NCBI GenBank assembly: GCA_046328215.1
Contig: JAXLXA010000002.1
Location: 18,799 to 82,798 of the forward strand
DNA length: 64,000 bases
Source of the DNA: Dehalococcoidia bacterium
GTDB taxonomy: Bacteria; Chloroflexota; Dehalococcoidia; Tepidiformales; Tepidiformaceae
Direction of reading: 5' to 3'
Below the pieces are notes generated by a model. That model was given only the letters and a program-made list of their open reading frames with translations, was not told the origin of the DNA and did not search any database. Shown piece by piece: positions 1 to 40,729 of the stretch (the first letter of the stretch is position 1; each line of letters starts with the position of its first letter). The position numbers were made by a program, and so were the translations under genes.

Positions 1-158
1 GGATAGCTACGACCACTGCCGGTACTGTCCCTATGACCTGGTCTGTCCCTCGAACCAGCGGTCAGAGGCGTGGATGTACGACAGGAAGGACGCCGGGCTG
101 GCAGCCTTCGTGGCGCTCTCGGAGATTTCCACGGAGGCGGAACGTGACGACAGTTGAG

Positions 159-3100
159 ATGACCGACGAGGCCGCGCGGCGGATCATCGTCGAACAGACC
201 GAAGAGACGATTTTCGTCGAGGCCGGCGCGGGCACGGGCAAAACGACGGAGCTGGTCGGGCGCATCCTCGCGCTCATCCGGTCCGGTGTGCCGGTCTCGC
301 GCATCGCGGCGATCACCTTCACCGAGAAAGCGGCGTCGGAGCTCGCCGAACGCGTCCGCAAGCGAATCGAAGCGTCCGAGGCGGCGGCGAAGACCGAGGA
401 GCAGCGGGCCGTGTTCACCACCGCGCTCAAGGAGCTGGACCAGGCCGCCATCCAGACACTGCACAGCTTCGCGAGGCGGCTGCTCAGCCTCTATCCGCTC
501 GAAGCCGGCCTTCCGCCTCGAGTCGCCCTGCGCGACGACGTCGAGGCGTCACTGGCGTTCGACGACCGCTGGGCCCGATTCCGGGACCGGTTGCTGGACG
601 ACCCGGAGACCGAGCGCGTGCTGCTTCGTGGCCTGACGACCGGCCTGCGCCTGCGCGACCTCGAAGCGGTGGCGGAGAGCTTCAACCAGAACTGGGACCG
701 CCTGGAGGACATTGCTCTTCCGGCGGCGGCCGAACCGGCGCTGAACCCCGAGCGCGTGCTCGACCCGTTGCGCGAGCTGGCCGCGATGCGCCGCCCGGGC
801 GTCGATGATTCGTTGACGAAGCGCCTTGATTCGGTGGAACCGTGGCTCGCCGGCCTGGATGGCCTTTCGAAAGCACTGCGCGCCAGCAACGGGGACAAAC
901 GCGATGCGTTGGAGCTGGACCTGGTCCGCATCCTGGCCAAGATGCCACAGCTGGCGGGGACCACGAGCCACGGCGGCAACGTGGGCAACAGCAGGTACTG
1001 GTCGGACATCGCGGGGGCGCGCCAGTTGCTCATGGAAGCCGAAGAGGCTCGTGGGGCGATGCTCGACGGCACGCGAAGCTGGGTGCTTTGCGAACTGCTT
1101 CCGCGCCTCTCCCGATTCGTGCTCGAAGGGGCCCAGGAGCGGCGGCGCAACGGTGAACTCGAATTCCACGACCTCCTCGTGCTCGCGCGGGACCTCCTGC
1201 GCACGCGGCCCGACGTCCGCCGGGCGCTGCACGAGCGGTTCCCTCGCATCCTCATCGACGAGTTCCAGGACACCGACCCGTTGCAGGTTGAGCTGGCGGC
1301 GTTGCTCGCCCACTCCGGCGAACAGGGGCCTGTGAGTTGGGACCAGGCCGCCACCGAAGCCGGGCGACTGTTCTTCGTCGGGGACCCGAAGCAGTCGATC
1401 TACCGCTTCCGGCGCGCGGACATCGAGCTGTTCAAGCGGGCGCGAGGCGCTTTCGCGGCGAGGCATGTGCCGCTCAGCAAGAACTTCCGCTGCCGCCCCG
1501 GAATCATCGATTGGGTGAACCTGGTGTGCGCGCGGCTGTTCAATGGCTTCGGGCAGTTTCCGGACGGGCGCCAGGCTGACTGGATTCCCCTCCAACCGGG
1601 GAGAGACACCGTGAAGCCCCCGGTGGTCCACGTCATGGGTGGGCCGGCGGAAGATGAGGTGCTGATGCCGGAGGTCCGGCGGCGCGAGGCCGAGGCGATC
1701 GCAGCCGCCGTCCTCGCCGCTCGCAAGGACAACTGGCTCGGGCAGAACGAGCGAGGAAAGACCACGCGCTACGCCGACATCGCCATCCTCCTGCCCACGC
1801 GCACGAATTCTCCGGCGATCGAGCGGGCGCTGGCGGCGGCGGGAGTGCCGGTGCGCATCGAAAGCCGCTCACTGCTCTTCGCGGCCCAGGAGATCCGGGA
1901 CCTCACCAACATCCTGGCCGCCATCGACGACCCGACGGACGACGTAGCGGTGCTGGCGGCGTTGCGGTCGCCGGCGTTTGCGATGCAGGACGGTGACCTG
2001 CTGGAGCATGTCAAAGCCGGCGGACGCTGGGATTACACGCGTGAGTCGCCCGATGCCTCGCCGGAGTGCGTGCGCGACGCGATGGCCTCGCTCCTCGGGT
2101 TCCACGAGGCACGCTGGCTGCTGAGCATTGGGGCGCTGGTCGAGCGAGTGATCGCGGAGCGGCGGATGCTCGAACTGGCTATTTCCACGTCGCGGCCGCG
2201 GGAAGCCTGGCGCCGGCTCCGCTTCGTTTCGGAACAGGCGCGGGCGCTCGGCGATTCGGGGACCGTCACGTCGCTGCGGCAGTTCGTGCACTGGCTGCGC
2301 ACCCAGGCGAGCGAGCGCGTGCTCATCGCCGAGGCGGTCGCCAACGAGCCAGACGACGATGCGGTGCGCATCCTCACGGTGCACGCTTCCAAGGGCCTCG
2401 AGTTCCCAATCGTGATCCTGGCGGGTCTCGGCATCGAACCGCGGCAGATTCGCCCGAGCATCGCATGGGCGCACGATGCCAGCGGCCGTGAGACCGCGGG
2501 CGTCCACATCGGCCGCTATGGCACGTACTTCGACACACCGGGCTACCAGGGACTCTGGCAGAACGAGAAGGTGCACGAAGCCCTCGAGCGTGACCGCCTG
2601 TTCTACGTTGCCGCCACGCGCGCGAAGGAACGCCTGGTGGTCAGCCTGTTCCACAAGCCGGTCAAGGAGCGGGCCGGCAACGACCATCTCTCGCGGCATG
2701 CCAGGCGGGCCTGCTCCACGGCCGAGTGCCTGTCGGCCATCCAGAACGAAGCCGGCAACTGGCCGGTGCTCCAGATCGGGATGGCGCTGGGCCCCGGACA
2801 GGCGGCTACGAGCACTCTTGAAGACACTGCCGAAGAGCGAGAAACGTGGCTGAAGGCGCGCGAGGAGCGGGTAGCGCGGCTCCGACAGGCGCCGGTGCGG
2901 GCAGTGACGACGCTCGTCCACGGCGACACGGAAGACGACAAGCCCGAACCGGAAATCGAGGAGCAGCCGTGGCGGAAGGGCCGGGCCGGCACGTCGATCG
3001 GCCGCGCGGTGCACGCCGTGATGCAGACAATCGACCTGTCGACCGGCGAACACCTCCGGGAGACCGCGGAATCGCAGGCGCTGGCGGAAGGGATCGCGAA

Positions 3101-3497: not shown

Positions 3498-4862
<1,365 letters not shown>

Positions 4863-4889
4863 GCCGCGAGTCTAGTACGAAGCTCATGA

Positions 4890-5255
4890 ATCCGCCGAAC
4901 CGACTCAGCCCTCAGTACGCGTCCACGGATCAGGGTGTCGGAGTGGACGGAACCGCGACCCTTGCCGGAGCGGCTCACGGCTTAGTGAGAGAGCCGCGCG
5001 GTAGCCACCCACCATCCGGGCTCACGAACTCGCTCGCTGACTCGTGACCTGGTGGCCTGGTCACGATCCGCTCCCGATGGGTCGCGGTTCAACGACGGGT
5101 GGCGGTTGGATGCGGCCTGCCCTGCTCAGTCCTCAGTCCTTTGCACTTTTCACCTTGTCCCGTAGTGGCTGGCGCGTGGCTGTGTCGCTAAGCCACGATC
5201 CGCTTACTGTCGTGCACGGTTCGACTTGGCGTGGCGCCCTACTCAGTCCTCAGTA
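4890..5255. repeat. Left part of repeat array 1: a diverged unit plus one ~135 bp unit carrying (CTCAGTC)n, and a solo IS630-like terminal repeat at ~4905-4940
   Basis: tcagccctcagtacgcgtccacggatcagggtgtcgga at ~4905-4940 matches the left TIR of the IS at 5256. Unit 5130-5253 matches the units at 6480-6905. Confidence 0.7.
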
Positions 5256-5267
5256 CGCGTCCACGGA

Positions 5268-5750
5268 TTAGGGTGTCGGAATGGGGAAACGGTTGGATTG
5301 AGGGGGTGCCATGACGCGGGTGAGTGAGGCAGAGGTCCAGTTGAAGGGGTGAGCGCGTGCGTTCCAGCGAGCGATGTACTGCAGGATCGCAGCCGCGAGT
5401 TCATCGCAGCTCGGGTAGTTTGCCAGGCGCAGGAGCTTGCGTTGGATGATCCCGAACCATTGCTCGACCTGGTTTAGCCAGGAGCAGTGGACCGGCGGGA
5501 AGTGGAAGGCAAAACGTGGATGTTCGGCGAGCCAGGCCTCGGCGGCCGTGCCTTTATGGACACGAAGGTTGTCGAGGACGACGTGGATCGTCCGGATCGC
5601 CTGCAGGGTGTAAGCATCGAGCCACTCCAGGAACGAGAGAAACTCGGTCGCCCGCTTCCGTGCGGCCGTCATTCCGACAACGTTCCCGCTGCGAGTGTCG
5701 AAGGCCGCGAAGAGGTTGAGTGCACCGCTGCGTTCGTACTCGTGCTCTAC
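5268..5750 (-). pseudogene. IS630-family transposase, C-terminal DDE part (orfB). The frame continues upstream without ATG (…VEHEYERSGALNLFAAFD…), so a frameshift is needed to join orfA.
   Basis: Motifs HVVLDNLRVHK and SWLNQVEQWF (second D and E of DDE). The out-of-frame upstream peptide EHEYERSGALNLFAAFDTRSGNVVG is typical of IS630 transposases. Confidence 0.7.
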
Positions 5751-8947: not shown

Positions 8948-10597
8948 ATGGCGCAGCGAGTCATCGAATCACGCCCAATCGGCGAGTTCCTCACCAACCG
9001 TCAGAAGCTCGTCGTCATGGGCTCCCTGATGATCGCGATGTTCATCAGCGCGCTCGACCAGTCCATTGTCGCCACGGCCACACCGCATATCCTCGCGGAC
9101 CTCGGCGGTTTCAAGCTCATCTCGTGGGTGTTCACCATCTACCTGCTGGCCTCCACGGTCACGGTGCCGCTGGTTGGCAAGCTGTCGGACATGTTCGGGC
9201 GGAAGCCGTTCCTCATCTCCGGCATCCTCGTCTTCGTGGCGGCGTCGGCGGCCTGTGGCGCGGCGCCGAACATGCTCGCGCTGATCATCGCCCGGGCGGT
9301 GCAGGGTATCGGCGGCGGCATCCTCTTTGGCTCAGTGTTCGCGACGCTCGGTGACCTGTTCACGCCGCTCGAGCGCGCCCGCTTCATGGGCTACTTCATC
9401 GGCGCGTTCACGCTCGCTTCGCTCGTCGGGCCGACGGCCGGCGGCTTCCTCACGGACGGTCCTGGCTGGCGCTGGTGCTTCTATATCAACCTTCCGGTCG
9501 GCGCGATCGCGACGGTGGCGGTCTGGAAGAACCTGCCGTTCACGATGAAGGGCGGCAACATCCGCGACATCGACTTCCTCGGGTCGGCGCTGCTTTCGGC
9601 GGCGACGATCTGCATCCTGCTCGGCCTTGTCTGGTCGCACACGGAGTTCGGCTGGGGCTCGCCCGAAACGGTCGGCCTGTTCGCGGCTGGGCTGGTCCTG
9701 ACGGTCGCCTTCCTGTTCCAGGAGTCGCGGCACCCGCAGGCGATTTTCCCGCTGCACATCTTCAAGAACCGCACATTCGTGATGGCGAACCTGCTGGTCG
9801 TGATCCAGGGCGGCGGCATGTTCGGCGCCATCACCTACCTGCCGACCTTCGTCCAGATCGCCCTCGGGCGCTCCGCCACGGACTCCGGCCTCGTCTCTAC
9901 CCCGCAGTCCATCGGCTTGCTGATGACGAGCTTCATCGGCGGCCAGCTCGTGTCACGCACCGGGAAGTTCAAGCTCCAGGTCATCGCCGGCTCGGCGGTC
10001 AGCCTGGCGGCCACGATGCTCATGCAAACGCTCCACGTCGGCACTCCCGCGTGGCACATCAGCGTGTTCATGTTCATCTTCGGCCTCGGTGGTGGCCTCG
10101 TCGGCCCGACGATTTCGGTCATCGTCCAGAGCTCGGTGCCGCAGTCGCTCATGGGCGTGGCCACCAGCAGCCGGCAGTTCTTCATGCAGATCGGCCAGGT
10201 CATGGGCGTGGCCATCTTCGGCCTGGTGTTCACGACGACCTACGGCTCCGCGTTCACTTCCAACATCTCGGCTGACACCGCGGCGACGCTTCGCCAGGCG
10301 AACGCCACTGAGCAATTCCACGACCCAACACTCGCCCTGGACGAACGAGGTCTGGCCAAGGTGAGGGCGGAGCTGGCGTCCCAACCTGACGGCGCGGCGG
10401 CCCTGACCGATGCGACGAACGCCCAGAAGGACGCGGTCTCCACGGCCACGACGCGGCTGTTCCTGGGATCGACCCTGGCCGGCATCCTCGTGCTCGTGGT
10501 GGCTGTCGCGATGCACGAAATCCCGCTGCGCCGGTCGTTCTCGCAGGAGCCGGGGCAGGAGCACGCCGTCCCCGTCATGGAACCGGAGATGGTCTGA
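8948..10597 (+). CDS. MFS transporter, DHA2 (14-TMS drug:H+ antiporter) family
   Basis: MFS signature GKLSDMFGRKPFLISGILVF near the N-terminus. Many hydrophobic segments. 549 aa. A ~220 nt leader lies upstream. Confidence 0.85.
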   Translation: MAQRVIESRPIGEFLTNRQKLVVMGSLMIAMFISALDQSIVATATPHILADLGGFKLISWVFTIYLLASTVTVPLVGKLSDMFGRKPFLISGILVFVAASAACGAAPNMLALIIARAVQGIGGGILFGSVFATLGDLFTPLERARFMGYFIGAFTLASLVGPTAGGFLTDGPGWRWCFYINLPVGAIATVAVWKNLPFTMKGGNIRDIDFLGSALLSAATICILLGLVWSHTEFGWGSPETVGLFAAGLVLTVAFLFQESRHPQAIFPLHIFKNRTFVMANLLVVIQGGGMFGAITYLPTFVQIALGRSATDSGLVSTPQSIGLLMTSFIGGQLVSRTGKFKLQVIAGSAVSLAATMLMQTLHVGTPAWHISVFMFIFGLGGGLVGPTISVIVQSSVPQSLMGVATSSRQFFMQIGQVMGVAIFGLVFTTTYGSAFTSNISADTAATLRQANATEQFHDPTLALDERGLAKVRAELASQPDGAAALTDATNAQKDAVSTATTRLFLGSTLAGILVLVVAVAMHEIPLRRSFSQEPGQEHAVPVMEPEMV

Positions 10598-35616: not shown

Positions 35617-35893
35617 CAGACATCCTTGACGCTGTGGCACGTGAGTCCGCGCTCCCCATCAGTCGCAGCCCAGACGAAGGGCCACTAACAAACGCGACAC
35701 TGTTTGTCGCGCATGACCGCTATCCATAAGACGTGGACTCCGTGTACAGGAACTATCAAGGATCGGCGGACGCGACGATAACGGATGGAGCAGCTATCCT
35801 GATTCGTCTACGGTGCCCCCGGGATCGCACCGGGCGGGCACACTCACCCCGCCGATTGTCCCGCCGGGGCTATCCCTATCTGGAGTCCAGGTC

Positions 35894-36487
35894 ATGAAAG
35901 TCGTCTTTTTTGAAGACGTAGAAGGCACCGCGCAGGTCGGCGAAGTGAAGGACGTGAAGAACGGCTTCGCTCGGAACTTCCTGCTCCCGCGCGGCATCGC
36001 CGGTTCCACCTCGCGTGACAACCTGCAGCGGGCGAACTCGCTCGCTCAGAAGGAAGCGCGCCGCCAGGAGAAGCTCGACGCGGAAGCGCGCGGCGTCTCC
36101 GGCAAGCTCGATGGCTACACCATCACCATCGAGGCACGCGTCGGCGAGACCGGCCACCTGTTCGGTTCGGTCACGAACCGTGACATCGCCGAGCAACTGA
36201 CCGCGAAAACCGGCGTCGACGTCGACTCAAAGATCGTCCTCCTCCCGGAGCCGATCCGCGAGATTGGCGAGCGCAAGGTGAGCATCAAGTTCACCCGCAA
36301 CGTCATCGCCGAAGTCACGGTCGAAGTTGTGCCGGACGAGGCTTCGAAGCCGGTGGTCGAGAAGCTCCTCGCCGAGCGCGCGGCCCAGGCTGAACTCGAA
36401 GCCAAGCAGCTCGCCGCGGCCGCGAAGGCTCGCGAAGAGGCCGCCGCCGCCGAAGCCGCTGCCGCCGAAGCAACCGAAGAAGAGTAA
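35894..36487 (+). CDS. rplI: 50S ribosomal protein L9
   Basis: MKVVFFEDVEGTAQVGEVKDVKNGFARNFLLPRG. Ala/Glu-rich C-terminal tail. Confidence 0.9.
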   Translation: MKVVFFEDVEGTAQVGEVKDVKNGFARNFLLPRGIAGSTSRDNLQRANSLAQKEARRQEKLDAEARGVSGKLDGYTITIEARVGETGHLFGSVTNRDIAEQLTAKTGVDVDSKIVLLPEPIREIGERKVSIKFTRNVIAEVTVEVVPDEASKPVVEKLLAERAAQAELEAKQLAAAAKAREEAAAAEAAAAEATEEE

Positions 36488-36567: not shown

Positions 36568-37962
36568 ATGACCCTCGCGCAACTCGAACGTCTTCCCCCG
36601 CATGACATCGAGGCAGAGGAGGCTGTCATTGCCTCCCTCATGGTCGATTCCCAGGCCATGCTCGCTGTCCAGGGCATCGTCAAAGCCGGCGACTTCTTCC
36701 GCGAGAAGAACGGCTGGGTGTACGACGCCTGCGTAGCCCTCTGGAACCGCGACGAAGTGGTCAACCAGATCACCGTGGCGCACGAGCTCGCTTCGCGTGA
36801 CCAACTGCAAGAGGTGGGCGGCCAGACCTTCCTCGCCGACGTCATCCGCCGGCTCCCCACCTCCATCGGTGCCGAGTTCTACGCCCGCATCGTTAAGCGC
36901 GACGCGATGTACCGCGGGCTGATCCACGCGGCCACCGGCATCCTGCAGATGGCGTACGAAGCGCCCGCCGATATCGACGGCGTGTTTTCGAAGTCAGAGA
37001 ACCTGCTCCAGAAGCTGCGCGGCGGCGAAAACTTCCGCGACTTCGTCCACATCCGCCAACTGCTCGATGCCTACCTGGACCAGGACCCGGACGAGATCGA
37101 GCGGATCGAGCTCTCGGCCATCCGCACCGGGTTCAGCGACCTGGATACGCTCCTCACCGGTTTGAAGCGCTCCGACCTGGTCATCATCGGCGCCCGCCCG
37201 AGCGTTGGTAAGTCGAGCTTCGCGCTTGGCATCGCGCGCAACGCAGCCATCGAGCAGCGCGCGAGTGTCGCCTTCTTCTCGCTCGAAATGTCGTCCGAAC
37301 AACTGGCAATCCGCCTGCTCTCGGCCGAGTCGGGCGTGGACAGCTCTCGCCTCCGCCTCGGCCAGAACACGGAAATCGAGGAAAGGCGGGTTGTCGCGGC
37401 CGCCGCCCGGCTTTCGGAAGCGAACATCTGGTTCGACGATTCGCCGATGCTGACGGCGGCCGAACTCCGGGCGAAGGCGAGGCGGCTCGCCGGTGAATCG
37501 AAGCAGCTCGACCTCATCGTCATCGACTACCTCCAGCTCATGCAGGGAGAAAGCCAGACGGGCCGCGAGAACCGCGTGCAGGAGATCAGCTACATCTCGC
37601 GGACGCTGAAGGGCCTCGCCCGCGAGCTGGACGTGCCGATCGTGGCGCTGGCGCAGCTGTCCCGCGCCATCGAGAACCGCCACCCACGCACGCCGATGCT
37701 CTCGGACTTGCGCGATTCGGGCTCCATCGAGCAGGACGCCGACATCGTCATGTTCCTCAGCCGCGAAGAGCTGTACGTGACACCCGAGCAGTGGGCGCAG
37801 CAGCACCCGGACCTGCCCGAGAGCGCCTACCCGAAGGGCGTCGCGCAGGTGAGCGTGGCGAAGCACCGCAACGGCCCGACGGGCAGCGTGGAGCTCCGTT
37901 TCCGCGAGCGCCTGGCCAAGTTCGAAGACTGGGTCCTGCGAACCGATGACCTCCCTGACTAG
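36568..37962 (+). CDS. dnaB: replicative DNA helicase DnaB
   Basis: N-terminal PHDIEAEEAVIASLM. Walker A GARPSVGKSSFALGIA. Walker B DLIVIDYLQLM. 464 aa. Directly downstream of rplI. Confidence 0.9.
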   Translation: MTLAQLERLPPHDIEAEEAVIASLMVDSQAMLAVQGIVKAGDFFREKNGWVYDACVALWNRDEVVNQITVAHELASRDQLQEVGGQTFLADVIRRLPTSIGAEFYARIVKRDAMYRGLIHAATGILQMAYEAPADIDGVFSKSENLLQKLRGGENFRDFVHIRQLLDAYLDQDPDEIERIELSAIRTGFSDLDTLLTGLKRSDLVIIGARPSVGKSSFALGIARNAAIEQRASVAFFSLEMSSEQLAIRLLSAESGVDSSRLRLGQNTEIEERRVVAAAARLSEANIWFDDSPMLTAAELRAKARRLAGESKQLDLIVIDYLQLMQGESQTGRENRVQEISYISRTLKGLARELDVPIVALAQLSRAIENRHPRTPMLSDLRDSGSIEQDADIVMFLSREELYVTPEQWAQQHPDLPESAYPKGVAQVSVAKHRNGPTGSVELRFRERLAKFEDWVLRTDDLPD

Positions 37963-37973
37963 AGAGTCGTGAC

Positions 37974-38720
37974 ATGCGAACCGGCCTAGAGGAACTGGAT
38001 AGCATTCTGTGCGATCTCACTGCCGGCCATTTGGCGTGGTTGGCGGGTCCGTATCGCGCAGGGAAGTCATCGTTGCTCCTCACAGTTGCGCGGGATGTCG
38101 CTTTGCGTCAGGGATTGAAAACCCTCGTTGTATCCGGCGATGACTCCATCCGAACCATCACGGATTGGCTGCTTGCAGCAGAGTCCGGCGTACCGAGAGA
38201 TAGAGTCTCTCAGGCCGTGTTGTCCGAACTCGAAGAAAGAAGGGTCGTTGCCGCAGCTGCACGCCTCGAGAAAGCGGCGCTCCAACTTGAGGACGCTAGG
38301 CGGCTCCCCAGAGAATGGCTCACCCTTCGGCTACAATACCTCGCCGAAGGGTTCGAGCCGGACGTGATCTTGATCGACGGCCTCGAAGGCATTATCCCGC
38401 AGGATTCTCGCGACATCACAGCTCTTGACCTGAAGCAGCTCGCCCGCCGCCTAGAGTTGGTGGTTATGGTTGCGACCGAGAGCACGCTCGACGCAATCGA
38501 ACATGCCGATGTCGTGCTCAGGTTGGACCGCGAGACGCTACACGTTGACCTCGACAGGTGGCTTCTCCAGCATCCGGATCTTCCCGAGAGCGCGTTCCCG
38601 CAAAATGTCCTCGACCTCGAAGTCATCAAGAACCGGATGGGGCCGCGCGGTAGCCTGTCTCTGCGCATTCGAGAGCGGGTCGGTCGTGTCGAGGAATGGG
38701 TCATGCGATCTAATGGATGA
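37974..38720 (+). CDS. DnaB C-terminal (RecA-like) domain paralog lacking the N-terminal domain. Likely ATPase-dead.
   Basis: Aligns to the DnaB C-terminal domain: EERRVVAAAARL is identical; LQHPDLPESAFP matches QQHPDLPESAYP. Walker A-like GPYRAGKSS. Catalytic SLEMS Glu replaced (VSGDDS). Confidence 0.75.
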   Translation: MRTGLEELDSILCDLTAGHLAWLAGPYRAGKSSLLLTVARDVALRQGLKTLVVSGDDSIRTITDWLLAAESGVPRDRVSQAVLSELEERRVVAAAARLEKAALQLEDARRLPREWLTLRLQYLAEGFEPDVILIDGLEGIIPQDSRDITALDLKQLARRLELVVMVATESTLDAIEHADVVLRLDRETLHVDLDRWLLQHPDLPESAFPQNVLDLEVIKNRMGPRGSLSLRIRERVGRVEEWVMRSNG

Positions 38721-39414
38721 GTTCAAGGGCTTCCCCGGCATCGGCAAGGGGACGGTGCTGCCGAACCTGTTCTTCGCGGCCGTGCTGCCGGAGATGCGGA
38801 CGCCCGGGGCTTTGCTGGCGTTCCTCTGGGTCTCGCGGCTGCTGCAGGAGAAACGTGGCAGCGAGCGCTTCGTGAACGCGGCCGAGGTCTGGGAGCAGCC
38901 CGCGGCGCGGGAGAACTTCGAAGCGCTGGCCGGGGGCAAGAAGGGCCTGAAGGCCGGGCTGGCGGAGTGCGTCGAGCTTCGCGCGCTTCTGGCGGTTGGC
39001 CTGCGGCGGGCCGGCGGCGAGGATGTGCTCTACTTCAGCAACGACCCGGCTTCGCGGCGCACCGTTGCGCGGGCGAGGGCGGGAGAAATCACGCTCCGGC
39101 CCGACAGCATCGTCGTGCCCATCGAGCCGCGAGAACGGCGGCCCGGCATCTTCCGCCTCTACGAGGAGAATATCGGCACCATCACTCCCATCGTGGGCGA
39201 GCGGTTGATGGAGGCGCAGGACCGGTACCCGCTGGAGTGGATCGAAGACGCCTTCCGGGAAGCGGCGGAACTGAACGCGCGTAACTGGCGCTACATCGAA
39301 ACTATCCTCAGGAATTGGGCCGAGGAGGGCCGTCCTCATGAAACGCCTGGGCGAGATTCTCTCGAAGACCGTAAGCGAAAGTACCTCGGAGGCGCGCTCA
39401 GGCCGGGAAGTTGA
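38713..39414 (+). CDS. DnaD-like replication initiation/helicase-loading protein (DDBH2 domain)
   Basis: C-terminal YEENIGTITPIVGERLMEAQDRYPLEWIEDAFREAAELNARNWRYIETILRNWAEEG, a DnaD/DnaB(Bsu) DDBH2 signature. Start at MDEFKGFPG. Confidence 0.7.
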   Translation: MDEFKGFPGIGKGTVLPNLFFAAVLPEMRTPGALLAFLWVSRLLQEKRGSERFVNAAEVWEQPAARENFEALAGGKKGLKAGLAECVELRALLAVGLRRAGGEDVLYFSNDPASRRTVARARAGEITLRPDSIVVPIEPRERRPGIFRLYEENIGTITPIVGERLMEAQDRYPLEWIEDAFREAAELNARNWRYIETILRNWAEEGRPHETPGRDSLEDRKRKYLGGALRPGS

Positions 39415-40729
39415 ACCCCCGCAGGAAGCTGTCTGCCCGATCTGCAAGGGTGCGGGGTTTGTCCGCCGGTCCCTGCCCGTGGATCACCCACGGTTCGGTA
39501 AGGCGGAGCCCTGCGAGTGCGTCCTGAACGAGGACGACCACGTCCGGCGCACGCGCCTCGAGCGGATGAGCAACCTCGGCGCGCTCACTCGTTTCACATT
39601 CGAAAACATGGTGCCGACAGGCCGGAACGATGACACCGGCTGGTTCGAGCGGGCGTACGACGCGGCCCGTGAATACGCGGCGAACCCGGCCGGCTGGCTG
39701 GTGTTCACCGGAACGTCCGGCAGCGGGAAAACGCACCTCGCCGCCGCCATCGCCAACCAGCGCATCAACGCCGGCGAACCCGCGCTCTTCATGGTCGTGC
39801 CAGACCTGCTGGACCACCTGCGCGCGAGCTACGAGCCGGACGAAGACGACATGGGCTTCGAGCAGCTTTTCGACCAGGTGCGGAACACGCCGCTGCTCAT
39901 CCTCGATGACGTCGACACCGGTTCGGGGAGCCCCTGGGCGCGGGAGAAGCTGTTCCAGATCGTGAACCACCGCTTCAACGCCAGCCTGCCGACCGTGTTC
40001 ACCACCACAACGCGCCCGCAGCAACTCGATGAGCGGCTCGCGACGCGGCTGCTCGACGAGGGGCTTTCGCGCGTGATGGTGCTCGATGCCGAAGCGCGCG
40101 GCGGCTACAGCCAGGTGGGTGGGATGACCCGCGACCGCATCAACGAGCTGCAGTTCCGCAACTTTGACCTGCGCGTGCCGGGACTCCACGCCGAAGAGCG
40201 CGAATCCCTCGAATCGGCGTTCCGGGCAGCGATGGCCTTCGGTGACGACCCGCGCGGCTGGTTCGTGCTCCAGGGCGCGAATGGCTGCGGCAAGACGCAC
40301 CTTGCGGCCGCAATCGCGAACAAGGCGCTTGGCAGCGGCATGGGCGTGTTCTTGGCCGTGGTGCCGGACTTGCTGGACTACCTGCGGGCCTCGTTCGCGC
40401 CCGGAAACGAATCACCCTATGACGAGACCTTCGACCGCATCCGCAACGTTGACCTGCTGGTGCTGGATGACCTGGGCGCCCAGAAGGCCTCGGAATGGGC
40501 GCAGGAGAAGCTGTACCAGGTGGTGAACTACCGCCACGTCGCCGGGTTGCCGACGGTCGTCACCACGGACCAGTCGCTGGACAAGTTGCAGCAGGCGCAC
40601 CCGCGCATCGTCTCGCGCATCGCGGACCCGCACGCCGGGACGTTCGTGACCATCCTCGCGCCGCACTACCGGCTTGGCCGCCAGCCAGAAGCACCGGCCG
40701 CGCGGCCGGGCGGGCGGGGGCGGCGGTAG
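39338..40729 (+). CDS. DnaI/DnaC-like helicase loader with N-terminal zinc finger and two tandem IstB-like AAA+ modules
   Basis: CPICKGAGFV...CEC. AAA+ module 1 GTSGSGKTHLAAAIANQ...LLILDDVD. Module 2 GANGCGKTHLAAAIANK...LLVLDDLG. Overlaps the upstream DnaD-like gene by 77 nt. Confidence 0.8.
   Translation: MKRLGEILSKTVSESTSEARSGREVEPPQEAVCPICKGAGFVRRSLPVDHPRFGKAEPCECVLNEDDHVRRTRLERMSNLGALTRFTFENMVPTGRNDDTGWFERAYDAAREYAANPAGWLVFTGTSGSGKTHLAAAIANQRINAGEPALFMVVPDLLDHLRASYEPDEDDMGFEQLFDQVRNTPLLILDDVDTGSGSPWAREKLFQIVNHRFNASLPTVFTTTTRPQQLDERLATRLLDEGLSRVMVLDAEARGGYSQVGGMTRDRINELQFRNFDLRVPGLHAEERESLESAFRAAMAFGDDPRGWFVLQGANGCGKTHLAAAIANKALGSGMGVFLAVVPDLLDYLRASFAPGNESPYDETFDRIRNVDLLVLDDLGAQKASEWAQEKLYQVVNYRHVAGLPTVVTTDQSLDKLQQAHPRIVSRIADPHAGTFVTILAPHYRLGRQPEAPAARPGGRGRR

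Follow-up and report, generated by a model that had tools for sequence, protein, structure and literature searches.

Organisation of the dnaB locus

In the Dehalococcoidia bacterium (Tepidiformaceae) represented by the genome assembly GCA_046328215.1, the replicative helicase gene dnaB is directly followed by a second, shortened DnaB-like open reading frame (ORF). Both genes lie in the 64,000-nucleotide (nt) stretch of contig JAXLXA010000002.1 analysed here, which as a whole is referred to as the window and to which coordinates refer unless a locus is named. The product of the second ORF resembles a degenerate version of the RecA-like C-terminal domain (CTD) of DnaB and is termed the DnaB-CTD copy. 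Compared loci or contigs carry L-numbers, and individual DnaB-like proteins carry P-numbers. A first-pass annotation had described this ORF as encoding a protein of 248 amino acids (aa) immediately downstream of dnaB, and both its limits and its position are borne out (Table 1). The ORF begins with an ATG on the forward strand and is situated in an operon of helicase and loader genes. The neighbouring dnaB gene codes for a protein with an N-terminal domain, a linker helix and an intact CTD, in which all nine key residues are present, and on the alignment evidence given below it is the parent of the DnaB-CTD copy.

The spacer between dnaB and the copy contains only a weak purine-rich AGAGAG stretch, and neither a scan of the operon, including this spacer, for promoters and terminators nor an Rfam scan of the operon returned anything above chance. 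At the other end of the copy, its stop codon overlaps the ATG of the dnaD-like gene, the overlap amounting to 8 nt (ATGGATGA), which suggests that the two genes are translationally coupled. In the relative L004, where this dnaD-like start is conserved, dnaB is separated from it by a spacer of 54 nt. The rplI gene, which opens the block, is also found upstream of dnaB at related loci, and the closest of the compared genomes is that of Candidatus Amarobacter glycogenicus, with a DnaB identity of 93%. The tandem helicase loader has a Cys-rich N-terminus (CPICKG...CEC), and such a fused double loader is encoded 3' of the dnaD-like gene in many Chloroflexota loci.

Table 1. Genes of the rplI-dnaB-dnaD-loader block, motifs of the DnaB-CTD copy and dnaB-adjacent copies at other loci. 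Bst, Geobacillus stearothermophilus DnaB; Eco, E. coli DnaB.
Feature	Position	Strand	Evidence or remark
rplI (ribosomal protein L9)	35813..36487	+	Pfam Ribosomal_L9_N and Ribosomal_L9_C; first gene of the conserved block
dnaB, full-length replicative helicase, 464 aa	36568..37962	+	TIGR00665 474 bits (cut-off 385); Pfam DnaB and DnaB_C
Spacer, 11 nt, dnaB stop (TAG) to ATG of the copy	37963..37973	+	Sequence
DnaB-CTD copy, degenerate RecA-like CTD of DnaB, 248 aa, ATG	37974..38720	+	BLASTP, Pfam, AlphaFold2
Walker A (P-loop) GPY(R/S)AGKSS, residues 25-33	38046..38072	+	Lys31 and Ser32 kept (Bst K216/T217)
SLEMS remnant SGDDS, residues 54-58	38133..38147	+	Catalytic Glu (Bst E241, Eco E262) replaced by Asp56
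Docking helix ELEERRVVAAAARL, residues 85-98	38226..38267	+	Last 12 residues identical to DnaB
Walker B strand VILIDGLEG, residues 131-139	38364..38390	+	Asp135 kept (Bst D320); Tyr of DYLQL replaced by Gly
Degenerate sensor strand and junction of 20-residue deletion	38460..38516	+	AQLSR replaced by TESTL; sensor Gln (Bst Q362) replaced by Glu169
Kept clade-specific insertion LLQHPDLPESAFP, residues 197-209	38562..38600	+	Directly before the equivalent of Eco 431-435
Lys/Arg-finger strand IKNRMGPRG, residues 218-226	38625..38651	+	Lys219 and Arg221 kept (Bst K418/R420; Eco K440/R442)
dnaD-like (DnaD-domain) gene	38713..39414	+	Pfam DnaB_2 and TIGR01446
Helicase-loader gene, 463 aa, two tandem DnaC/DnaI/IstB-type AAA+ modules	39338..40729	+	Pfam and TIGR profile matches
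Copy at L096 (P0012)	2055-2951		
Copy at L103 (P0037)	1915-2850		
Copy at L099 (P0014)	267-1187		
Copy at L100 (P0010)	122-1036		
Copy at L105 (P0026)	123-1010		

The DnaB-CTD copy retains the fold of DnaB and lacks elements needed for translocation

Residues 1-247 of the copy align by BLASTP with residues 185-460 of the adjacent DnaB (37% identity, 55% positives, E 7e-43), in agreement with the earlier claim of a full-length alignment to the DnaB CTD. The two stretches quoted with that claim are also recovered, EERRVVAAAARL being identical in both proteins and LQHPDLPESAFP of the copy aligning with QQHPDLPESAYP of DnaB. This E value and the lineage-specific residues which the copy has in common with its own DnaB argue that the resemblance is not due to chance. 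The copy is recognised by the Pfam DnaB_C model (66.3 bits against a cut-off of 27), over profile positions 3-176 of 255 only, while it scores just 53.8 bits against the cut-off of 385.25 of the DnaB equivalog model TIGR00665. There is no match to PF00772, the N-terminal helical domain involved in collar formation and primase binding. The protein begins at the RTG..LD motif that opens the DnaB CTD, and an in-frame stop codon (37956-37958) lies 15 nt 5' of its ATG with no alternative start codon between the two, so that the N-terminal domain and linker helix, which had been reported missing, are truly absent. Likewise, only DnaB_C and AAA_25 (RecA-like) match the copy, and an AAA+ module of the IstB or Bac_DnaA type is not present. 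The AlphaFold2 model of the copy is of high confidence, with a predicted local distance difference test (pLDDT) score of 94.6 and a predicted template modelling (pTM) score of 0.91, and its top structural matches are the CTDs of DnaB proteins, with template modelling (TM) scores of about 0.8 normalised to the query.

Individual residues were mapped through alignments to the DnaB proteins of E. coli and G. stearothermophilus (Bst), the functional roles of the Bst residues being those which we take them to have in PDB 4ESV and 2R6A, with the contacts of R381, E382 and G384 to single-stranded DNA (ssDNA) taken from 4ESV. The form of the Walker A motif is retained as had been noted (GPYRAGKSS in the window), and the Walker B Asp and the Lys/Arg-finger strand are preserved as well. 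The catalytic Glu of the SLEMS motif is gone, as the first-pass annotation had stated, but SLEMS aligns with SGDDS and the residue is replaced conservatively by Asp. The 20-residue deletion takes out the ssDNA-contact loop (DnaB RHPRTPMLSDLRDSGSIEQD, with the equivalents of Bst R381/E382/G384), and a further seven residues are deleted from the NRVQE loop. The alignment thus disfavours an intact catalytic core, with Glu changed to Asp, Gln changed to Glu and the loop deleted, and the copy does not appear to be a competent motor. To call it ATPase-dead is nevertheless too strong and points to the wrong main lesion, as the P-loop, Walker B Asp and Lys/Arg finger are all kept. It is plausible that the copy binds nucleotide and that a neighbouring subunit makes use of its Arg finger, and the main defect would be an inability to hold ssDNA, the loss of the ssDNA loop and of the sensor Gln being decisive. 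This pattern argues against ATP-driven 5'-3' unwinding by a hexamer of the copy.

Single-domain members of the DnaB family are known from mobile elements, the plasmid RSF1010 RepA protein being one RecA-core-only helicase of this kind. RecA-core-only DnaB-family helicases without an N-terminal domain are also encoded by mycobacteriophages, and the core of Wildcat Gp80 has been shown to unwind DNA (Bhowmik & Das Gupta 2015, PMC4523182). The copy could in principle be an active minimal ATPase or helicase of the same sort, for which the retention of the P-loop Lys and Ser, the Walker B Asp and the Arg finger, together with the conservative exchange of Glu for Asp, may be cited. This is, however, highly improbable, as its ssDNA-contact loop is deleted and its sensor Gln has become Glu, its score is far below the DnaB equivalog cut-off, and it has no linker helix with which to dock in a ring (PMC4705694). 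The phage and plasmid enzymes are active or presumed active and are encoded in replication modules, whereas the copy is degenerate and encoded in the chromosomal rplI-dnaB-dnaD-loader operon. Nor is it similar to phage helicases: no tblastn match was found in 50,697 phage records (E <= 1e-5), none was found by an IMG/VR pattern scan, and the PHROGs matches were generic DnaB-like ones only.

The DnaB-CTD copy evolves as a protein-coding gene

The ORF of the copy is found on at least 16 contigs, and the ten contigs inspected, which come from ten different runs, are 99.2-99.9% identical to the window; its occurrence in independent runs indicates that it is not an assembly artefact. The P-loop is polymorphic at 38055, where the window has CGC (Arg28, GPYRAGKSS) and all ten other assemblies have AGC (Ser28, GPYSAGKSS), Ser also being the residue found at this position in the P-loop of DnaB. 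As this exchange is the single non-synonymous difference in the copy across the ten population contigs, a polymorphism-based test of selection is powerless. In contig L090, 11 substitutions, of which eight are synonymous, cluster in a 234-nt part of the dnaD-like gene (equivalent to 38805-39038), with none in the copy; this cluster looks like a recombination tract.

Identity between the copy and dnaB is 0.53, 0.63 and 0.36 at the first, second and third codon positions, respectively, and the Nei-Gojobori method (NG86) gives 0.65 non-synonymous substitutions per non-synonymous site (dN) and 1.65 synonymous substitutions per synonymous site (dS), the latter value being saturated. Synonymous saturation is already nearly reached between the dnaB genes of the window and L004. 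All gaps in the alignment of copy and dnaB are multiples of three and remain in frame, while simulated neutral drift to the same amino acid identity left an open frame in only 0.4% of runs. The replacements observed are also more conservative than those of the neutral simulation (mean BLOSUM score -0.29 versus -0.73 +/- 0.13). Within the 12 identical residues of EERRVVAAAARL, 11 of the 12 codons differ from those of dnaB, all synonymously, and there is no non-synonymous change, so the identity of this stretch reflects purifying selection; the same differences rule out recent gene conversion as its source. Selection for a below-chance synonymous similarity to dnaB was considered and rejected, since in all three pairs third-position identity equals or slightly exceeds what composition predicts. 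Taken together, the substitution pattern argues that the copy is a real gene whose folded product is under purifying selection.

An alternative to be weighed here is that the ORF has little or no function and is a relic of a partial tandem duplication, its frame merely not broken as yet. Such a relic would account for its confinement to one species-level lineage without an ortholog among 1.84 billion representatives, its absence from the closest relatives and the loss of catalytic and DNA-binding motifs. The divergence of its CTD (60%, against ~3% for DnaB) implies far faster substitution, and its GC content at third codon positions (GC3) is 0.66, compared to 0.87 in dnaB, and is the lowest among the credible genes of the window (others 0.75-0.91). 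A relic would, however, leave unexplained the conservation of the first and second positions over saturated synonymous sites, the rarity with which neutral drift keeps the frame open, the restriction of indels to in-frame events and the docking helix with 11 synonymous and no non-synonymous changes. It is also at odds with the very confident predicted fold, the compact coupling to an essential downstream gene and the presence in five other lineages of such copies with the same residues retained and lost. We regard a relic as unlikely, and an unexpressed pseudogene remnant, which the first-pass annotation had named as the finding that would overturn its reading, is disfavoured.

The docking helix is the best-preserved part of the copy

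By alignment, the identical stretch of the copy corresponds to residues 293-304 of E. coli DnaB. In the latter protein, residues 264-308 form the hexamerization pocket that receives the linker helix of the neighbouring subunit, DnaC protects residues 295-304 and 431-435, and the I297A and L304A variants are defective (PMC4705694). The helix in question, also called the "determinant" helix, pairs with the linker helix of the neighbour as the linker helix-docking helix (LH-DH) module, at which DnaC, lambda P and DciA all bind and DnaI is predicted to bind (PMC9912922), and DnaB needs its linker helix to dock on its neighbour in the ring (PMC4705694). Among DnaB orthologs the docking helix is variable, yet it is identical between the DnaB of the window and its 60%-diverged copy. 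QHPDLPESAFP, the second best-conserved stretch of the copy, immediately precedes the residues equivalent to E. coli 431-435. The DnaB protein itself has a 13-residue insertion (window 37795-37833, residues ~410-422, containing QQHPDLPESAYP) just before the Lys/Arg-finger strand, where it adjoins the region corresponding to the DnaC-protected part of E. coli DnaB. This insertion is shorter in the Dehalococcoidales and absent in the Ardenticatenaceae, Roseiflexus, Geobacillus and E. coli.

The preservation of this surface would also suit a decoy that displays the DnaB docking surface without joining a ring, sequestering either the organism's own DnaI-like loader, as a form of negative regulation, or the loaders with which phages hijack DnaB, as a form of defence. 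The part of the copy kept identical to the host DnaB is the very surface used by loaders (PMC9912922), the motor functions are lost, and the fast evolution and patchy, lineage-specific distribution would suit genes in conflict. The loader site is, however, a two-helix module that needs a linker helix (PMC9912922), which the copy does not have, and the gene is embedded in a core replication operon rather than in a defence island. A search of the defence library gave a single weak match, mad8 (28.7 bits), the model of which matches the P-loop of the loader equally, and there is no phage relative. Moreover, the Arg-finger strand, for which a pure decoy would have no need, is kept in six out of the six lineages with such copies. 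A decoy function consequently appears improbable.

Origin and distribution of the copy

The copy scores 143 bits against its own DnaB and 64-105 bits against other Chloroflexota DnaB proteins. It carries seven derived residues of the DnaB clade formed by the window and L004, as well as the 13-residue insertion of this clade, and five of the seven derived residues fall in the docking helix. These derived residues, the insertion and the best score to its own DnaB indicate, at the level of sequence, that the copy goes back to a partial tandem duplication of dnaB in this lineage, one old enough for synonymous sites to have become saturated. An origin from a phage or mobile element was rejected, given the lack of a phage or IMG/VR relative and the derived residues common with the host DnaB.

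A word-index search of 5.8 billion clusters and an exhaustive one of 1.84 billion representatives returned no ortholog of the copy, only the copy itself and ordinary DnaB proteins, and the same was true of pattern scans of GTDB and JGI. The best apparent ortholog match, P0004, proved to be merely a DnaB fragment. A second DnaB-like region was found in none of 80 GTDB loci, and in the distant Chloroflexota L011-L014 and L067 dnaB is followed directly by the dnaD-like gene, with no copy. The gaps between dnaB and dnaD at L164, L166 and L175 were examined as possible DnaB copies and dismissed as an intein-like insertion or a membrane-protein gene. At L164 an insertion of ~1.2 kb (4458-5692) splits the dnaB CTD, as expected for a DnaB intein, while at L166 (4556-5995) and L175 (4474-5919) a gene for a ~480-aa multi-pass membrane protein is located between dnaB and the dnaD-like gene. 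In L001, dnaB is split over two frames at ~10067-10080, the called product being 345 aa in length with an out-of-frame N-terminus; the split stems either from misassembly or from a frameshift.

Degenerate copies next to dnaB in other lineages

Short DnaB-like proteins were surveyed among the best 150 representatives, a sample which is biased because the query is itself degenerate. Sixty-one of these are DnaB-like proteins of 250-345 aa without an N-terminal domain, and only three of the 61 keep all nine key residues. The Walker B Asp is kept in 97% of the short proteins and the Arg finger in 85%, followed by the Walker A Lys (64%), the catalytic Glu (56%) and the DNA-contact Arg (33%); full-length DnaB proteins retain each of these residues in 94-100%. 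Five short proteins are encoded directly 3' of dnaB, namely P0012 (L096-98), P0014 (L099), P0010 (L100), P0037 (L103/104) and P0026 (L105), so that the suggestion to look for CTD-only proteins next to dnaB elsewhere yielded degenerate copies in five further lineages. These lineages are Chloroflexota-like and known from short contigs only. The next gene is dnaD-like for P0012, P0010 and P0037 (L096-98, L100 and L103), and the L103 operon has the layout of the window, with dnaB, copy, dnaD-like gene and tandem loader in order. At L099 the gene after the copy lies beyond the contig end, and at L105 a dnaD-like next gene was not recognised.

Two further short proteins, P0055 and P0007, are encoded away from dnaB, the latter being phage-like in appearance. 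P0007 (L095, 43-3124) has no N-terminal domain, yet all catalytic and DNA-binding residues are present, which shows that active short forms coexist with degenerate ones. Its gene is followed by those for a 264-aa protein, a small IstB-like AAA+ protein and a DUF5131 protein, and the locus looks like a phage-type replication module.

The DNA-contact Arg is missing from all six dnaB-adjacent copies, that of the window among them, and each still has the Walker B Asp and the Lys/Arg finger. Written in the order Walker A Lys, Walker A Thr/Ser, catalytic Glu, Walker B Asp, sensor Gln, three DNA-loop residues, Lys and Arg finger, the residues of the window copy are KSDD----KR, and those of the other five are TSQDSGGGKR, KTEDTPE-KR, KSEDQAEGKR, KSDDR---KR and VTEDL---KR. 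The other five copies are 295-311 aa long and have a linker-helix-like N-terminal segment of 25-40 residues, which the window copy alone is without. Low GC3 is a further common feature, with the copies 18-29 points below the adjacent dnaB in the five loci with dnaB sequence (the window and four others). Values range from 0.47 to 0.66 in the adjacent copies, compared to 0.73-0.89 in their neighbours, only the copy itself (0.466) having been measured at L105. In all three full pairs, copy and dnaB agree at third positions about as often as expected by chance, and in the L103 pair the first and second positions are conserved over saturated third positions. P0012 at L096 is saturated relative to the adjacent dnaB except over its last ~60 codons (~2740-2948), where DNA identity to the 3' end of that gene is 88-97%; gene conversion between tandem copies thus does occur, and here it was recent.

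Each copy scores highest against its own cognate DnaB lineage, which favours independent duplications over one ancient family, and at least three of the six origins are probably independent rather than orthologous. With regard to origin only, it is conceivable, if rather doubtful, that all derive from one ancient Chloroflexota paralog family that was lost many times and homogenised patch by patch through gene conversion with the neighbouring dnaB. The conversion tract at L096 demonstrates that such exchange takes place, and five of the seven derived residues common to the window copy and its DnaB are concentrated in one short docking-helix patch. The window copy and P0055 have loop deletions and several motif replacements in common, and neighbour-joining trees group the window copy with P0055 and P0026. 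Against this, the identical docking-helix patch is synonymously saturated, so any conversion there was not recent, and the 70 sampled operons without a copy would imply very many independent losses, in addition to the match of each copy to its own DnaB lineage. The common deletions can be convergent, as no degenerative change is more frequent than loss of the DNA loop, and the tree grouping unites the longest branches and may be a product of long-branch attraction.

A possible role in helicase loading

The observed descent of the copy from dnaB, the selection acting on it, its fold and its pattern of kept and lost motifs are consistent with a non-translocating pseudo-subunit of DnaB, predicted to dock on DnaB, on the DnaI-like loader or on both. 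We place the chances that this is its role about evenly for and against, the partners and the effect on loading being the inferred part. A partial tandem duplication would have left a second RecA-like CTD between dnaB and the dnaD-like gene, which lost what translocation needs (collar domain, linker helix, ssDNA loop, sensor Gln and, by exchange for Asp, the catalytic Glu) and kept the P-loop, Walker B Asp, Lys/Arg-finger strand and an unchanged docking helix. Presumably co-expressed with DnaB and with the DnaD-like protein and DnaI-like loader, the copy would attach to a DnaB protomer by way of the usual interface between CTDs, accepting its linker helix, offering an Arg finger and completing a nucleotide site. 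It may also, or instead, bind the N-terminal domain of the loader or present a loader-binding surface. Lacking both a linker helix and a collar domain, the copy could cap an open or growing DnaB ring and not extend it, and such capping would modulate the assembly or opening of the ring during loading. A non-catalytic adaptor, possibly a helicase mimic in loading or regulation, is also what the first-pass annotation had proposed. Selection on the docking helix, the coupling to the dnaD-like gene and recurrence at the same operon position lend indirect support to this adaptor role.

Several observations weigh against a pseudo-subunit. The closest relatives, L001 and L004-L009, do not have the copy, dnaB being followed directly by the dnaD-like gene. 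An unbiased sample, drawn with the DnaD-like protein as seed, contains 59 metagenome loci that are informative as to the upstream sequence; dnaB lies upstream of dnaD in 58 of these 59, and the copy is present in none of the 58. Given its absence from the closest relatives and from all 58 loci, the copy is dispensable for the loading pathway in general. The low GC3 (0.66) could reflect weak expression or relaxed constraint, and the average dN/dS on the branch of the copy may reach values as high as ~0.4-0.8, dS being saturated. The use of the LH-DH module by DnaI-type loaders is itself a prediction (PMC9912922). In other lineages, identity of the docking helix to that of the cognate DnaB is much weaker (7/16 in L096 and 9/16 in L103), and with a linker-helix-like N-terminus in the other five copies only, one mechanism may not fit all.

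Going by sequence comparisons, the copy belongs to none of the known groups: it is not a DnaB by the curated model, not a loader of a known family and not an active RecA-core-only phage helicase. It is like the DnaB CTD (PF03796; 4ESV, 2R6A, 2Q6T and 6KZA) in fold (TM about 0.8), descent, P-loop, Walker B Asp, Lys/Arg finger and docking helix, while DnaB, unlike the copy, has an N-terminal domain, linker helix, catalytic Glu, sensor Gln and ssDNA-contact loop. The copy is proposed to act at the interface bound by the loaders DnaC, lambda P, DciA and, as predicted, DnaI, and in the same step, the opening or assembly of the ring (PMC9912922; PMC4705694). These loaders have unrelated folds (AAA+ or KH-like) and bind the LH-DH module from outside, whereas the copy is RecA-like and would supply the docking-helix half of the module itself.

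Partners of catalytic RecA-fold subunits occur in other systems. The T7 gene 4 proteins of 56 and 63 kDa include an N-terminally shortened helicase isoform that co-assembles with the full-length form, and the alpha subunit of the F1-ATPase is a non-catalytic RecA-fold partner that donates an Arg finger. In these systems the partner completes the nucleotide site of the catalytic subunit, and by analogy the copy, in which the Arg finger is kept and the active site has decayed, may do likewise. The T7 gene 4 and F1 systems are, however, obligatory, while the copy is rare and lineage-specific.

That at least three apparently independent duplications have kept and lost the same residues speaks for a function on which selection can act. 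Descriptions of degenerate DnaB copies adjacent to dnaB were not found in the open-access full-text literature. A tentative extension, which we hold to be possible and on balance doubtful, is that the repeated Chloroflexota copies between dnaB and dnaD represent an undescribed helicase accessory that caps or wedges the DnaB ring through the docking helix and Arg finger, and so aids or restrains DnaD/DnaI-type loading. The window protein, alone without a linker helix, would be its pure capping form. For DnaI/DnaD-type systems there is, to our knowledge, continuing debate on how the DnaB ring comes to be opened or assembled on DNA, and none of the loaders known to us (DnaC, lambda P, DciA and DnaI) has a fold related to that of the helicase. 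Should the copies prove inert, they would show how tandem copies of an essential gene decay while the frame stays open for long. If the pseudo-subunit role holds true, a helicase-derived and motor-dead partner, co-encoded with DnaB and its loaders, would represent a different solution to helicase loading. The copy would then serve as a natural probe of the linker-helix/docking-helix interface, with several natural variants that may be used for testing in vitro.

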